From Eledone cirrhosa (lineage: Eukaryota): a DNA stretch of 64,000 nucleotides. The translations under genes and the position numbers were made by a program. The notes beneath the pieces are model-generated. The model made no database searches. It was not told the DNA's origin and saw only the letters and a program-made list of their open reading frames with translations. Each line of letters opens with the position of its first letter. The first letter of the stretch is position 1. The stretch spans positions 19,592,001-19,656,000 of the forward strand of contig OZ024743.1 of NCBI GenBank assembly GCA_964016885.1. Reading direction: 5' to 3'. Positions 3,316-50,132 of this stretch are shown here, piece by piece.

Positions 3316-3539
3316 ATAGAGAGGCCGATATTCTCAAATAGCAATTGTCATCATTACTGATTATACCCGTTACTGGTTGTTTGATCATGCTAAAAGTTCC
3401 CCCCTGTCTTATATAAATAAATGCATAATTAAGCAGTAGAATTATTATTGATGACATATGTGTATTAAAAATATACAAATGAGAAATTTGTTTTAGTTAA
3501 CTTTATTTTGAGTTGAATATTCTTATGAATTCATTTCAT

Positions 3540-13169: not shown

Positions 13170-15888
13170 ATAATATTAATAATAATAATGTCCGTTTACA
13201 ATTGTTTCGCTACTCCATATGATATTTCTGGATCAGATGACTATATATCATAATTGATCTGGTTCAGTTGAAAATAATTAACATATTTAAAAGACAGAGC
13301 GGCTCATCGGAACTTCAAAGGAATATAAATTAAAATAATGAGAGAATGTTACATAATATAATGTTCCATATATTGGTTTTTACTATGGTGTCTTGGTTGC
13401 ATCAGTTGTCAGCCATAATCAAGCAGTATTCATCTGTCGAGGCTGCATTGTGTGAGATCTGCCTATGGGTAACAAGATGGCTGCCAAAGGGCATATTTAC
13501 CTTACTAATTAGAGGGTCGTTTCAGGGGAAGTAACTCCTCGAGAGATTAGAAATTGTGGGTGTTTATAGTTAAGTGCTAATTTTTAATTGTTTTTAATTG
13601 AGAGACAATGTAGGGGAGGTAACTTATAATTATCCAAGTTGTTCATAGCAATTTAACTTATTAGCTACAAGTAAAAATGGGGCTACATGACTAAGTTGGG
13701 TCAAATATTCTATTGGCGAAGGAATTATCCCTTCGATGTTGATAGCTAATAGTTACCTCCGTTCTATCGTTAATCGGTAGAGGTCGTGATAGAGTTATGT
13801 ATTATGCTTCCGTAATACAGAGATCACAAGATTTTCTTCGTCCATTGAACGGTTGGGCCCTAGCCACGATATCCCATTTTAGTGAGTGTTGAACGTTGTT
13901 TAATTTAAGGTTTTTAATGAGCTTAGCTAGCGATGTCGAACATCTGTTGCTAGGATCTCGGAAGGAAAAAGAGTGCGCGTTATAGCGTACCTTAAAAGGG
14001 TTAGAGGTAGACCCGATATAAGAGCTGGTATTCGAAGCAGTTTTAACCGTGCATAGACTATGTTGGGTGTCAGGCAGTGTCCATTTAATGGGCATGCATT
14101 GGGGTAACGGCAGTTGCAGTTGCTTCTGCGGTTAGTGAGAATAGGGTAGTTTAACCTAAGCGGTAGGTCCGTGCTAGAAGGATTAGAAGGGGGAGGTGTG
14201 CTACTAGAGTAATTATTGGTGTAGTGGCGTGGTGTATTTCATAGGGGTGGTGGTACCGCGGTGTGGGAGTTATACTGTCTTAGCTTATGATGGTTACTGA
14301 ACGCGATGTGGCTAGCTAGGTTAGGTGTTGTGGAGAATGAGATTTTAATGTTATTTCTATTAAAGAGTTTGTAATACCTATGGTTGGGGGGGGGGGTGTT
14401 TAGATAGGATAGAGAAGAAGCGTTTGGGGATATTAGTGGCTAGATTAGATGAGAATGGGGGGGGGGGTTAAGCCAGGTGATATTTCTAGGTTTATTCCTT
14501 CTAAGGGTTCTAGTGTTTGTCATCCCATTTCTCATTCCTATTCTAGGGTTGATTTTTAGTTTGCTACTTGGAGTGGGGAGCAGGCCGCTACCACCATTAA
14601 AGTTCCCTGTATAGCTGCTGTTACTGCTAAAATTCCGGCGAATCTGGCTATATGCTAAGGTATTTCTAGTTCTAGTTTTAAGTTTATTATGGTGAATTGC
14701 TGAGTTAAGGCATTTAGATATGTAATAAATTGATTGTTCATAACCAGATTCAGAAAGAGCCTTATTATAATGTTGTGCGTGGTTTATAAATATCTCCTCA
14801 TTTGCTGATAGCATTGAGATCCTATACGAGATAGATTTGATTACTGCTCTGATGACTGCCGGTGGGTGGTTAGAGTGTGGGCTAATATATGTGAGTATTT
14901 CACCTGGTTTATGGTAAGGGTAATATAGGTTATTGTTGAGATCCAGGGTGACGTCTAGGAAGTTTACTACTTTATGGTTCGGCTCGATGGTGATAGAGAG
15001 ACCGTTATTTTTAAAGAATCTATGTAATTGTTTTTTTAGCAAATCGATTCCTCGATTAGTGCAATTGTGGACTGCAAATAGGGCGTCGTCCCTGTATATT
15101 GCGCCTTGCAAGTGTTGGATTTCGGCTCTGATGTTACGTAATAGGTAAATCCCAACTAAATCGGTGATTTGCGCGGAGTCACTTGAGCCTATCGTAATGT
15201 CAAAGTTGTCTGTTCTATCTTTTCTAGTCTAGAGTGCTCCTTTGAATTCAATGATAGACTGCCTAGCCATAAGTATGATGTTAATCTCATTATTGATTAT
15301 GTCCGAGTTGGTGCTGGCTAGGGCTAATGCTTTGTTGAGCAGTTCCGGGGTTATTGACGCCAAATAGCTGTCTATGTCAAATTAGATGAACCTCATAGAT
15401 TGCTCGGAGAACCATCTAATGACTTGCCCGGTGTTGGACCACAACTTGTAGGTGGTATCATCCCATAGCCCAGGGATTATCCTATCAAGGATGTTCTTAC
15501 TGATGCGGCCCAGGTCAGATGTGGTTGGGCTTATGAGTCTAATAGATGGGTTCTGTATAAAGTTTGGCTAGTGATCCTTGAGAGAGAACCTTGGGGTTGT
15601 TGGTACATAAGGGTGGGTAAATCTATCCAGATGCAAGTCCTTAACCAAAGCCTGGGCTTTTCGGTTAAGTACGTTTACACTGGAGGGTATAGTTTTTTAT
15701 AGTTTTTATTGAGCTCTTTAAGAAGGTGTATAGATTTTAGTTTTATCAGACATAACATGTAAGCGGTTGCTATCTTTAATTTTTTAAATATTTGTTGCTA
15801 ATATAGTGAGGAAGTTATCCTTGTGTCTATAATGATTTTTGAATTTAATGCTGCTGACGAAGTTGAATAGATCTTTCTCAAAAGGTGA
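13170..15888 (-). mobile_element. 5'-truncated, frameshifted Penelope-like element (Naiad-like RT + GIY-YIG)
   Basis: KDH.PNF..NPSIRLISP, FDITIGSSDSAQITDLVG, IYRDD, VNFLDVTLDL, SNHPP, CNCR, YIGSTSNPFKVRY..H and CDLCITE. Bounded by (TA)n and (AAT)n. Confidence 0.92.
13194..13313 (-). ncRNA. Type I hammerhead ribozyme motif (U4C core variant) at the PLE 3' end
   Basis: GTT-CCGATGA-[GCCGCTC...GAGTAGC]-GAAA-CAATTG-TA^AAC. Confidence 0.65.
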
Positions 15889-19611: not shown

Positions 19612-20482
19612 CTATTCTCAGCTAAGTTTCCAGGCAATGCGCGGACACTAGGGACTCGTATAAAAATATTAATATTCGGTGGATGGAACAGCTAGCGAGG
19701 ACTAAATTCCAAAGCACTGAAAAAGTTCACTGCTTCTGGTCAAATGGCAGATTCTAAAGAATAAATCACGTGACACTGAGGCTAGTCGGAAGGAGTGGGG
19801 TAGTAAAATGACAAAGCCTACTACCACTACAATAAGTTAGTAGTGGATTTGGCAGGTTTGCTCAACAAATAAATAATTTGGAGATAAATATAGAGAATTA
19901 GTATATTTACGAACATATGCGTACAGATGTACACTAATGCTAGCAAATACATAAGTTATGTCATAGTACCTAGTTACATTACGTAACTATCTTTATCCCA
20001 TTACAGAAACTAATTAGTTGGAGTGAACATTTTAGTAAGTAAGTTAATTTTTAATTTTTAAAATTTTCTTATTTTACGTCTTTCATATAATTGTTCTGCA
20101 TCCTCCTGCATTGAACCACCTAGGTACTATGACATCACTTATGTGTTTGCTAGCATTAGTGTACATCTGTACGCATATGTTCGTAAATATACTAATTCTC
20201 TATATTTATCTCCAAATTATTTATTTGTTGAGCAAACCTGCCAAATCCACTACTAACTTATTGTAGTGGTAGTAGGCTTTGTCATTTTACTATCCCACTC
20301 CTTCCGACTAGCCTCAGTGTCACGTGATTGATTCTTTAGAATCTGCCATTTGACCAGAAGCAGTGAACTTTTTCAGTGCTTTGGAATTCAGTCCTCGCTA
20401 GCTGTTCCATCCACCGAATTATTATTATTTTTATACGAGTCCCTAGTGTCCGCGCATTGCCTGGAGACTTAGCTGAGAATAG

Positions 20483-22301: not shown

Positions 22302-23011
<710 letters not shown>

Positions 23012-23487: not shown

Positions 23488-23530
<43 letters not shown>

Positions 23531-23532
<2 letters not shown>

Positions 23533-26500
23533 AAAGTTATATTTAAAATTGTTGGGTTACAACTAGTAAATATTTATAACTGATATAAAAGCACTCGACA
23601 AATATTTGGAGTATATTTACAATATTAAATAAATGGAAAACTATATTTATAAAACCATATTTATTTCATTATATATATTTCGGGGATATCATATTAACAA
23701 TATGCTATGCCTTCATCAGACAAAATACAATATAAACAGTTTTATAGATAAATAGATTCGACATACCGTTGTAACACCGACTTCATTTGAAGAGGTTTAA
23801 GCTGGCAGTGAAAAAATTTTACACAGAGAGAAAGAGAGAGAGAAAAAAAAGAAAGAAAGAAAGACAGAAAACGAAGAAAAGGAAGAAAAAGAAGAGAAAG
23901 AGGAAATGCATGGAACAAAATAGAGAGATGGAAAGATAGATAAAGCGAAGAACTTCATGTAAAGAAACAGAAAGATATATATATAGAGAGAGAGAGAGGA
24001 AATAGAGATAGATACATATATATATAGAAAATTAGGTAGTGGGAGGTCATTTTGACTAAATGTATCAATGATACATTCACTTATTCACCTATTTATTCAG
24101 CCCAAGTATTAATGCAAGGGAGATATATAGAGTGAGAAAAAAATATAGAGAGAGGCAAAAATAGCGAGAGAAAAAATTTAAAAATAGCCAGACACATTCG
24201 AGGCGTAAAAACCCTATGTTTTAATGTATTAGTATTTATAAAATTTACACTATATTGTAAATATCAGTATTCCTGAATGAGACAAGCATCCACAATGTGC
24301 GAAAATCAATTATCCCATGTCTCGTTTTAAAAAATTCATATGTTCATGTGACAGCTACAAACATCCATGCGAATCCAACTGATTCACTCTGCAAACTCTA
24401 AGTTCACGGAAAACATTCTCAATGTGGTATAAAAATTCGAGCATACATATATGTGTATTATTATTCCTGTCATTACTCCACAAGATTATCTATCAAGCAG
24501 AAATAGAGAGCAGGTCTCAATATACCAATAAAAATATATATCATAAACAAAACTAAAAATAAAAAGATAACAATAATAATAATAAGTAAAAATATAGAAT
24601 AGAAAACTAAAAAAATATTACGAAAGAATATTACATAATAAAAATATTACATATTAAAAATACTACGTATTAAAAAATATTACGTATTAAAAATTTACAT
24701 ATTAAAGATATTAAAAATAATTAAAAATAAAATAAAAAATAAAAAATATTATAGAATACTACAATAATAAAAAATAAAAATAAAAATAAAAATAAAAATA
24801 AAAATAAACCACAAAGATCAACCCTTCAAAGCCAATCGACAACACACTGCCAAGTTCATTACAAGACAAAGCCAAAAATTATCTATCAAATCACATCTAG
24901 CAAAGATCATTTCAAAAAGATTATGATGTCCAATTAGGTCTACATATGTTCTTATATTTAATATAGAAGTTTATCTAGTGTAAAGTTTATTCAAAAAATT
25001 TGGAGCATCAGCCCTTAGGGCAGCTTAATTTTTCATGAGGAATGTTTAGATAAAAATAAAATAAAATAAAAATAAAAATAAAGAGTAAAAAGAAGGAATC
25101 AAAGATTTAGGAATCAAAAATTTATCGGCTAGTTTCCCATATAAATATAAATCAAACTAAACATACTACACCCTAAATTTAAATTTATATTTAAACGTTG
25201 AGTTCAATCTATGTCCGCAACAACTGAACAAACTTGTCCGTAGGTTAAGGGAACTCCCAGATTTTAGCATAAAGAATATCTCCCCGCGCAGAGGTCACAT
25301 GTCTCAGAGGATGAATTAAAAGGAATCCCTCCTGAGACCACACTCCAAGCCGTCGAATATCCAACGTCATCTAGCTTAAGTTGCCAGAGTACGCCCGACA
25401 GTGCCGCCGAAGATTCTCTACCTGGATCTGTGAAAGAACCCCTGCGGCTACCATAGCGAAGTTCAAATTCCGTCGATGTGGAACCGACGTAGTTAAAAGA
25501 ATTAGAGTCAGTATTAACATTACAATTGTATACTATATTTTTAACTAAGCAGTTGTCATTTAACGGACATTTAGATCCATCTCCACAGTCACATCCGTTA
25601 ACTTGTACATTATTTATGCTACTATCAGTAGGTTTTAAGTTCCTATTATTTATTCTATTAATACCTCGTGCTAAATTCCTGGTGGATGAGTAGGTTAATT
25701 TAACTGTATGCCTATTGAAAATTGAGCGATACCCATGTGTTCTAGGGAAGCGACCATCAAGAGCTTTGAAAAATAATTTAGCGATGTGGGCTTCAATGTT
25801 TAGTGAGAAAGGGGGGGCAAACCAAATTATGTTCCTAGTTCTATTTCTTTTTTGTCCTTTGGAATTATTGTAATGCTTTCTATTATAGTTGTTAATGTTG
25901 TTGCCGTAATTAAAAAAGTTGTTACTTTGTTTAGTTTGTCTATCATTATCTATGTACACAATCTTATCAGTATATCCTGCCCTAGCTAGTGCTTCATTAT
26001 AGTATTGGGCCTTTTCGTCGAAAATCTTTCTATTCGACGAGATCCTAGAGATACGTTTTTGAACTGAGTTTACTATAGTGTTTTTGACAGATCTGGGGTG
26101 GTTAGAGTTAAAGTTGACATAGTTTAAGTTTTCATTCAACTTGTGAAAAGGATAGTGGAGACATGTGTTGAGATTTAATGTTATATCTAGGAAATTGACT
26201 ATTATATGGTTGTTCTCAATTTCTATTTTAAGGTTAAAGTAATTAAAAAATTTTGTAATTTGTTTACATTTTCTATTTAGTTCAGGGTTATTATTATTAA
26301 TAAGTAAAAGCATGTCATCCCTATATAAACCTCCGGTAGTACCAGGTATTTTCCTATGTAGCGAATTGATTAAAAATAAGCCCACAAGGTCAGTTACCTG
26401 AGCTGAGTCGGAAGATCCCATAGTTATGTCAAAATTGCTATCTCTATCTGCTCTGGTCCATAATTTGTCATTAAATTCTATGAAGGCATAGCATATTGTT

Positions 26501-26572
26501 AATATGATATCCCCGAAATATATATAATGAAATAAATATGGTTTTATAAATATAGTTTTCCATTTATTTAAT

Positions 26573-26577
<5 letters not shown>
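23531..26577 (-). mobile_element. 5'-truncated Naiad-like PLE with long 3' UTR and inverted pLTR fragment (26479-26577)
   Basis: FDITMGSSDSAQVTDLVG, GLYRDD, VNFLDITLNL, SNHP, CxC..CPL...C, YVGST and CDLC. HHR at the 3' end; (TA)n flanks. The genuine part of ORF 25264-26817 begins near 26478. Confidence 0.93.
23662..23727 (-). ncRNA. Type I hammerhead ribozyme in the PLE 3' end
   Basis: Same motif as 22474-22539, on the minus strand. Confidence 0.8.
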
Positions 26578-26656
<79 letters not shown>

Positions 26657-27052
26657 CATGTATATATATATATATACATGTGTGTGTGTGTGTGTGTGTG
26701 TGTATCTGGAAGTGCGTGTGAAGTGTTATTTAGATATTTAGTTCTTTCAGTTATGTGCTTCTGTGTCTGTAAAATGATATTTACAATCAATTCAATCGCT
26801 GAGGATAATATAAACAATAGCTTTCTGGTGTAAAGCTTTCATAGACCTCAGATGAAAATGATAATGTCATACTGTGACACTTGGAAAGATAAAATCACGA
26901 CTCAAGTCGTTAGTGAATCTCTGTAAAATACATCAATAAATTGACATGAAATGTTTAGTAACACATAGACCGTTACTGGCTGATTTTAGCTTCAAATGAA
27001 AGCAATAACTTTTAATATATCATTTTCACGCACTCTCAGACATGTCCAGACT

Positions 27053-44692: not shown

Positions 44693-48077
<3,385 letters not shown>

Positions 48078-48402: not shown

Positions 48403-50132
48403 AATTCCATATATGGTCAAAGTGATTGTCAAAAATCAGTAGTAATTCTGTGGTTGCAAATTAGTAGGGGAGATGGTGGCTAAACCTGCCAGTAGGAGAA
48501 AGAGGGGAGGGGGTGGAGTAGACCCAATCAAGCGTTGGTAGTGCCAGCTACAGCTGGGCATGAGGTCAAAGAAGATACAGGGGAGGGGGAGGGGGAGGAA
48601 GTCGGAACGGTAGGTAGAACAATGGGGGGTAAAAATAGGAAAGAAAAAATACTGAGAGTGAAGAAAAGCAAATAAGTGTAAAGAAAAAATTAAACTATAT
48701 AGGACTTACCGCATGTGACTTCAAGACCCGGCTATACCAACATAGACATACCTTCCGAAACCCGGCCCGGCGTCACGCCACTACACTTTCGGGCCACATA
48801 TGGGACCTCAAGGACAACAACATCACCTATGATCTCACTTGGAGATTACTGTCCAGAGCCAATTCTTACACGGGAGGACGCCGTCCGTGCAATTTATGCT
48901 CGGAGGAAACTTTACAAATGCTGTTTTCGACGGACCAACTCCTAAACAAGAAAGATGAACTGGTTACTGCATGTAAACATAGATTGCGTAGGACTTACCT
49001 CGCCCTCAAACCCCATAATGACCCGGGGGGGTAGACTAGGGCTATAACACCCCAGTTGCCGATTTTGCAATGGGTAACCCCTGCTTGCCAAGGAAGACGT
49101 AAGATCTTCTTTGTATTCTTTTATCGCATCCTTTATTTCCTTCCCCCCTCTCTCCTTTGTCCTTCTACCCCAGCTCTTCTCCTTTGTCGGCGTCTTTTCT
49201 CGCCCACCCGAGGCTGCCCTTTGGCCCCATGTAGCCTTAGTACCCCCACTCCCCCCTCCCCTAGTCTTTGATAGATTTGGCGGACTCCGCCCTTTATAGC
49301 AGTTGGCTTAGACCCCGGATACTTGCCCCCCTTTTCCGACCGCTCCCACTATTCTCTGTGCCCTCTATATTTCTTAGTGGCACTTATGCCTTATTTTTTC
49401 GTTTCAGTATTTCTTGCTTCGCTTTTCTTCTGGGCGGGGTGGATTCTGATCTTATTTCTCCGTATTCTACCTTTATTTCGTACGAACTTTCATGTAGCTT
49501 GTTTTAGATCTTTTAGAGTTAGCATTAGTATATATTTTTCCCGGGACTCAGAATTATTATGTCGTACAAGTTCACTTTGCTGCACTGGGTCGTTGCTGGC
49601 CCGGGATGGAAACCTTTATTGTTTATTTCGTGGTAGTCTCTTTAGTATTTTGGCCCCTTTTGTTGACCAGTCACCGTATCATTTACGTACTTATACTTCT
49701 TAAAAGGGTCCTTGCCTAATTCGTCCCACCTAGTTCTTTTACTTATTTCCTTATTTATTTTTTTATTTATTTATTTACTTCTTTCTTTCTTTCTTTATTT
49801 TATTCTCGCCTAACAATAGCCTGACACTTAGGTCGTAGAATTTAATTTTTTCTTTACACTTATTTGCTTTTCTTCACTCTCAGTATTTTTTCTTTCCTAT
49901 TTTTACCCCCCATTGTTCTACCTACCGTTCCGACTTCCTCCCCCTCCCCCTCCCCTGTATCTTCTTTGACCTCATGCCCAGCTGTAGCTGGCACTACCAA
50001 CGCTTGATTGGGTCTACTCCACCCCCTCCCCTCTTTCTCCTACTGGCAGGTTTAGCCACCATCTCCCCTACTAATTTGCAACCACAGAATTACTACTGAT
50101 TTTTGACAATCACTTTGACCATATATGGAATT

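Follow-up and report, generated by a model that had tools for sequence, protein, structure and literature searches.

A Penelope-like element with a probable endonuclease

The window analysed here is a stretch of 64,000 nucleotides of Eledone cirrhosa DNA. Its minus strand carries at 23530-26484 the body of a 5'-truncated Penelope-like element, made up of the C-terminal half of a reverse transcriptase (RT), a GIY-YIG-type endonuclease region, a long 3' region and a pLTR end, with the 3' end at ~23530. The body is 95.3% identical to an intact natural copy of the family (L031/L032; source genome of 3.0 Gb) that has an ORF of 745 amino acids; it begins at intact-copy position 932 and is missing the first ~305 of the 745 codons. 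Head to head with the body lies a 5' inverted arm on the plus strand (26480-26584), 105 nt long and equivalent to the 3' end of the element, which matches 23612-23716 at 99% in the opposite orientation and overlaps the body by a few bases at the junction. The sequence reads as a (TA)n and then a (TG)n microsatellite at the 5' junction (26578-26700) and as a (TA)n microsatellite at the 3' junction (23494-23530). An intron at 26484 was considered and rejected, the upstream piece being the inverted arm.

Foldseek places TERT at the top of the matches to a structural model of the intact copy (3du5, E 5e-10; model pLDDT 84), and the RT of the intact ORF is, as modelled, closest to telomerase RT; sequence searches of Pfam and the PDB with the element protein gave no match. 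Homologues conserve the motifs IVY...YVG, FK.R, H, C..C, E, LN and C.H at the C-terminus, which we take to be of the GIY-YIG / CCHH type, and the order of strands and helices in this part of the whole-protein model agrees with a GIY-YIG-type endonuclease. A Cys-rich linker (CNC...C...C) precedes the endonuclease region, (TA)n flanks are present, many copies of the family have head-to-head 5' inverted arms, and the full-length order is inverted arm, direct pLTR, ORF. With its TERT-like RT, pLTRs and inverted arms the family is a Penelope-like element, to judge from its sequence probably endonuclease-bearing (EN+) and of the Neptune type. It resembles the Penelope-like elements described in the available parts of PMC8557442, PMC3846280 and PMC11167929 in having a single ORF, a telomerase-like RT and a C-terminal endonuclease region, and further in its Cys-rich linker, pLTRs, 5' inverted arms and (TA)n flanks, the last three being the layout given for endonuclease-bearing members in PMC8557442. 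Counted by one 24-base site, the family has 1,384 copies.

The pLTR contains on the minus strand (23678-23719) the words CTGATGA and GAAA, spotted by eye, which we take to be hammerhead-like core words. A search of the pLTR against Rfam gave no hammerhead match, and the fold z of the stretch is 0.55. At another locus of the family the changes described below extend into this stretch (L104:6700-7260), and hence the template RNA of that copy contained it.

A sense-strand A-to-G tract in the window copy

Substitutions were scored against the commonest letter per column among 29 other family copies. Over 2,732 columns the window copy has 100 substitutions, of which 86 are A>G in the sense orientation of the element, all of them inside a hyper-changed tract on the minus strand at 24078-25794. 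The 29 other copies have A>G as 94 of their 795 substitutions, and 14 of those 94 come from L022, a second edited copy. Expressed per A site, 81 of 530 are changed inside the tract and 0 of 403 outside it; the unchanged 5' part, comprising the RT region and linker (25795-26484, minus strand), has 0 of 261 A sites changed and 3 other substitutions. The clustered sense-strand A>G excess over the family consensus is thus as the original prediction had it. The interval named there, 25205-25825, contains 52 A>G and no other substitution against the column-commonest letters, and its sense strand is indeed rich in G (0.21, with A at 0.28, where the intact natural copy has G 0.13 and A 0.37); the tract itself runs to 24078, ~1.1 kb past the end originally given. 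The expected depletion of G on the 5' side of changed sites is also present (p 0.004), whilst an excess of G on the 3' side is not significant in the window copy alone (15/60, p 0.058).

The ancestral motifs had been reconstructed without an alignment, and the family agrees with FKLRYNNHK and with CNCR as the forerunner of CDCG. Elsewhere the reconstruction needs correcting: the family already reads YVG where YIG was assumed and RFP where HFP was assumed, and it has HRY rather than HKY in place of HGY, STALS rather than STTLS in place of SAALS, and CKH rather than CRH in place of CGH. LDDV is a changed motif, as proposed, but the family reads LDNV and not LNNI.

Amino-acid changes are most numerous in the endonuclease region at 25171-25620 (minus strand), as read from a codon table and alignment rows. 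The first CCHH-type His, which is conserved in most homologues, is changed to Arg, and many Lys and Asn residues are altered. Near 25285 there is a 1-nt deletion where family reads carry one base more, presumably the product of slippage in a G run created by the A>G changes themselves, and a frameshift falls just ahead of the conserved Glu. It had been suggested that the changes disabled the endonuclease. The region is indeed wrecked, but the copy is inactive through truncation regardless; in the full-length edited copies L103, L106 and L112 the changes themselves would be expected to damage the endonuclease.

A 151-nt Logan contig from public run X1 (depth 7.3) covers 17 changed sites and has 0 differences to 25344-25494; the family words of this interval reach depths in the tens of thousands in the same run. 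As X1 may be the assembly's own sample, the contig excludes assembly error and is silent on fixation. In RAD reads from another sample (X10) the window's letter is present in few reads per site, their locus of origin being unassignable. An assembly or sequencing artefact might be suspected in a repetitive region, and systematic mismatch clusters arising from sequencing errors are known (PMC2873906, in its available part). We nevertheless consider such an artefact scarcely conceivable, given the exact match of the X1 contig to 25344-25494, the different patterns at twenty loci and the agreement between separate arms of one locus. The family is without these G residues, the spectrum is unbalanced and the contig matches, all in keeping with the original prediction.

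Recurrence across the genome

Further loci were sought with two densely changed stretches and two patterns, most being found by a bait that favours A>G. An A>G excess is present at at least 19 of them, 13 among 87 loci plus five and one from the pattern searches. The weakest (A>G, T>C) are L113 (25, 12), L136 (48, 18), L109 (32, 11) and L022 (12, 1), the counts for older subfamilies being inflated by subfamily variants. Tracts in edited copies are of kilobase length with up to ~190 changes. A hyper-edited copy in genomic DNA is therefore correctly described, but it is not the singular event first envisaged, since the phenomenon extends to at least 20 loci. The changed sites are only partly common between copies (Jaccard 0.00-0.53), implying independent events with hot spots. 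Edited copies lie 11 on the plus and 8 on the minus chromosome strand, so that the direction of change follows the element and not the chromosome.

At one TAG test site G is found in 9 of the 1,384 copies, and all 9 are hyper-changed. The mirror T>C control comprised four sites, one without a measured denominator: two positions in the same 24-mer gave 1 match each, two other sites gave 1/343 and 0 matches, and none of the matching copies was hyper-changed. The 9 pattern matches include 4 of 14 loci that had already been identified, from which the number of edited copies is put at roughly 29, or ~2% of 1,384. Roughly 2% of the young family's copies thus have long sense-strand A>G tracts.

Neighbour preference and the candidate deaminase

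In the ORF part of the tract at 11 young-subfamily loci, 585 of 607 substitutions are A>G, with only 2 G>A (APOBEC-type) on the element sense strand and 4 A>C plus A>T; upstream of the tract in the same loci 3 of 1,271 A sites are changed. Over 305 sites the rate depends on the 5' neighbour (T 0.31, A 0.26, C 0.11, G 0.08; G against the rest, p 1e-9) and on the 3' neighbour (G 0.35 against 0.16-0.26, p 7e-4), and the top triplet in the pooled set is UAG. The same 5' and 3' preferences are described for ADAR in hyper-edited RNA in the accessible part of PMC4365171. The genome contains an ADAR2-like gene with HAE, PCG and SCSDK motifs (E 3e-102 to human ADAR2), its deaminase domain lying in two large pieces at L142:1246-3348. 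Polarity, density, neighbour preference and recurrence support a course in which ADAR edits the sense RNA and RT then copies it, as the original prediction of a retrotransposed hyper-edited transcript supposed.

With three more A_deamin loci, on C1 and C25, the genome has at least four, which leaves room for another RNA adenosine deaminase, of ADAT or ADAD type, acting without the need for a long duplex; the search of predicted structure described below, which gave no duplex partner, points the same way. The neighbour profile is nevertheless that of ADAR, and the sharp-edged kilobase tracts suggest a long duplex, so that we regard an enzyme of this kind as highly improbable.

The spectrum also bears on changes made in the chromosome after insertion, in clusters of the polymerase-eta type, and on a G>A drift of the family by CpG decay in which the G-rich copies would be the ancestral ones. 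The WA motif is typical of polymerase eta, and its preference for A or T on the 5' side overlaps the one seen here. Yet A>C and A>T are as rare as just stated, the direction of change always follows the element, and inverted arms share the changes of their bodies. As regards drift, only 10 of the 81 changed sites in the window copy come after C, and distant homologues keep the family's A-form residues, for example the His and the Lys of FK.R...HK. These explanations are largely refuted and we give them a negligible probability.

Inverted arms carry the changes of their bodies

Arm and body were compared in 10 edited loci. Of the changed sites beneath an arm, 148 of 151 are also G in the arm, including 65/65, 38/38 and 18/18 in the three best cases; the misses are in L113 (4/6 shared) and L137 (0/1 shared), and L134 is uninformative, as is the window copy, whose arm spans a zone without changes. 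Given that editing affects only ~2% of copies, agreement of this kind between two independent RNAs would be extremely rare, and arm and body therefore derive from one molecule; the changes are likewise older than the arm. This sharing fits a fold-back onto first-strand cDNA or the double use of one RNA, whilst later DNA-level duplication or gene conversion may also account for the agreement. Models of the kind set out in the available text of PMC11167929, with a predicted dimer that extends the two target strands, are constrained by this sharing.

Arm-body agreement is relevant, too, to misincorporation by the RT under unbalanced nucleotide pools, which might produce bursts of A>G and would be expected to leave a small fraction of copies with strand-specific changes made at insertion. 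Errors in second-strand synthesis would, however, split arm from body. Misincorporation also predicts neither the joint depletion of 5' G and enrichment of 3' G nor edges that are fixed in position across subfamilies, and we judge it very unlikely. The explanation that we consider very probable is that ADAR edited the element's sense RNA before insertion and that RT copied the inosines as G into germ-line insertions.

Shared tract edges and a proposed duplex partner

The tracts start at intact-copy 1615-1725 (window 25801-25691; within 111 nt) in 7 of 12 informative copies, for which p is 0.004 under uniform starts; starts in older copies were taken by eye, subfamily variants having misled the script. 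Four of the 12 clearly start elsewhere (intact-copy 1192, ~1241, 1838 and 2147) and L111 is ambiguous. A test site 35 nt upstream of the edge yielded 1 hyper-changed copy against 9 at the tract site, a difference with p 0.02 assuming equal copy numbers, as read depths suggest. At the other end, several tracts stop near 24078 (intact-copy 3323-3331), whilst that of L104 runs on into the pLTR.

Candidate signals, picked after the edges had been seen, lie at both ends. The common 3' edge is beside a 21-nt palindrome (24058-24078), the core of which is kept in most older copies, and the antisense strand has TATA/initiator-like words of putative function at 24017-24052, the TATA word being missing in older copies. 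At the shared 5' edge the antisense (plus) strand has GTGAGA (25803-25808), which may be a splice donor; the 3.9-kb element has 3 GT(A/G)AG words in antisense orientation, of which this is one, and it is present in 29/29 rows shown. Logan contig data gave no splice joint at 25802, and the best word share in public runs was 0.31, where words free of changes would by themselves give 0.23, which is not decisive. Neither of the antisense poly(A) words, at intact-copy 1702 and 1507, coincides with the edge, and the tract has no antisense ORF of at least 40 aa.

A second donor-like word is found on the antisense strand at window 26233-26240 (plus strand; equivalent to intact-copy 1177), reading AAG/GTAATT in some older copies and lying near the start of two or three longer tracts. 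Several edited copies are 5'-truncated near two of the tract edges, at intact-copy 1696 (L102), 1683 (L135), 1726 (L105) and ~1169 (L150).

No long intramolecular duplex is predicted in the element, the longest helix being 14 bp, and sites predicted to be paired are changed at a rate of 0.18, unpaired ones at 0.24, so intramolecular structure was rejected as the substrate. The copy's own arm was likewise discarded as the duplex partner, as arms show A>G in element-sense terms and not T>C. A fold-back donor with a 2.2-kb inverted arm from window-equivalent 25817 (L005) was rejected as a general source: it has few private variants in common with the window copy, it is without the 5' end present in the edited copies L103, L106 and L112, and older subfamilies have the same tract edge. 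At L033/L034 (G000:C3, near 235.72 Mb) a copy with a 2.2-kb inverted arm from window-equivalent 25817, 97% identical to its body, would be a perfect hairpin source if transcribed.

The shared edges and the want of a predicted long hairpin together suggest an antisense partner RNA, and we infer that an element-encoded antisense RNA pairing in trans is their simplest reading. In nearly all edited copies the changes avoid a U-rich repeat zone of variable length in the 3' region (window 24530-24830), which is what a partner RNA derived from another copy with different repeat lengths would lead one to expect.

The edges bear equally on a scheme in which the template is antisense RNA and it is adenosines of the plus-strand cDNA that are deaminated, by ADAR on an RNA:DNA hybrid or by another deaminase. 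ADAR can act on the DNA strand of such a hybrid, and such deamination would leave the polarity unaltered and, were ADAR the enzyme, the neighbours too; arms made after it would share the changes. The hybrid would span the whole copy, however, leaving the shared internal edges unexplained, the antisense template would itself carry edits as T>C, of which the control sites revealed no copy, and inosine in DNA is normally repaired. We hold this scheme to be very unlikely. An antisense template for Penelope elements is hypothesised in PMC3846280, where, in the available part, the choice between sense and antisense is unsettled; the sense-only polarity argues against it, at least for edited copies.

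Under ADAR editing of sense RNA, an antisense RNA, probably element-encoded and covering approximately window 24050-25802, would anneal to the sense RNA, and ADAR would convert ~5-55% of the tract As. The edited RNA would then serve target-primed reverse transcription at (TA)n, and the 5' inverted arm, for which either this molecule or its first-strand cDNA would be the template, would inherit the changes. Taken as a whole, the proposal that the edits are a barcode, that insertion is from sense RNA, that the arm comes from the same molecule and that the element's own antisense RNA of defined ends makes it vulnerable to ADAR in the germ line strikes us as slightly better than an even prospect. 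Were it true, the arm would arise through fold-back of the cDNA or because one RNA was used twice, and not from a second RNA.

Relation to known editing of retroelements

The nearest parallel is APOBEC 'DNA editing' of LTR retrotransposons, where, according to the available part of PMC4866542, deaminase hypermutation of a retroelement intermediate is likewise fixed, clustered and strand-biased. That system affects the LTR elements of vertebrates through C>U on minus-strand cDNA (G>A in the sense), and the same text reports negative results for 19 invertebrate genomes; here, in contrast, the changes are sense A>G with ADAR neighbours in a Penelope-like element. For BLV, the accessible portion of PMC8025556 reports A>G clusters that entered integrated proviral DNA and attributes them to ADAR1; the cases are three somatic proviruses that have at least seven changes within ~70 bp. 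The present case differs in its kilobase tracts, its at least 20 assembled genomic copies and the endogenous nature of the element. ADAR hyper-edited repeat RNA has the same neighbour signature and clustering, but in the available part of PMC4365171 the editing is in RNA reads only, whereas here it is read in DNA. The restriction of LINE-1 by ADAR1 is likewise an action of ADAR on a retrotransposon, although a largely editing-independent one, with no edits in L1 RNA in the available text of PMC5224506.

The available parts of PMC8557442, PMC3846280 and PMC11167929 differ from the present account in that editing tracts are absent from their descriptions of Penelope-like elements. A 2016 review treats the mutation of retrotransposons by ADAR as logical but undetermined, in a passage on Alu (PMC4982230, available in part). 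Full-text literature that includes few subscription papers contained no report of ADAR-hyper-edited genomic non-LTR or Penelope-like copies; a prior description is possible.

If ADAR editing before insertion is the right explanation, it is the ADAR counterpart of APOBEC editing, and RNA editing would be a recurrent heritable transposon mutagen in this lineage. The tracts would show directly, at the level of DNA, that RNA competent for transposition is acted on by ADAR in cells leading to the germ line. The edits would, moreover, label the RNA molecule behind each insertion, making template polarity and the origin of head-to-head arms testable from genome sequence alone.

Neighbouring repeats

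Other repeats surround the copy. Two pLTR-only fragments from the same family, inverted relative to each other, lie ~800 bp off its 3' end (window 22304-22713). Three more distant Penelope-like elements (30-43% protein identity) are present in the window at 13817-15258 (minus strand), at 44808-46729, with the body on the minus and an inverted arm on the plus strand, and at 48690-48902 (plus strand). A MITE-like inverted repeat at window 19662-19973 and 20120-20431 has 312-nt arms that are 97% complementary and 146 nt apart. At another locus (L040/L041; G000:C4, near 268.67 Mb) the element and its flanks form a 4.5-kb inverted duplication that is 99.6% identical.
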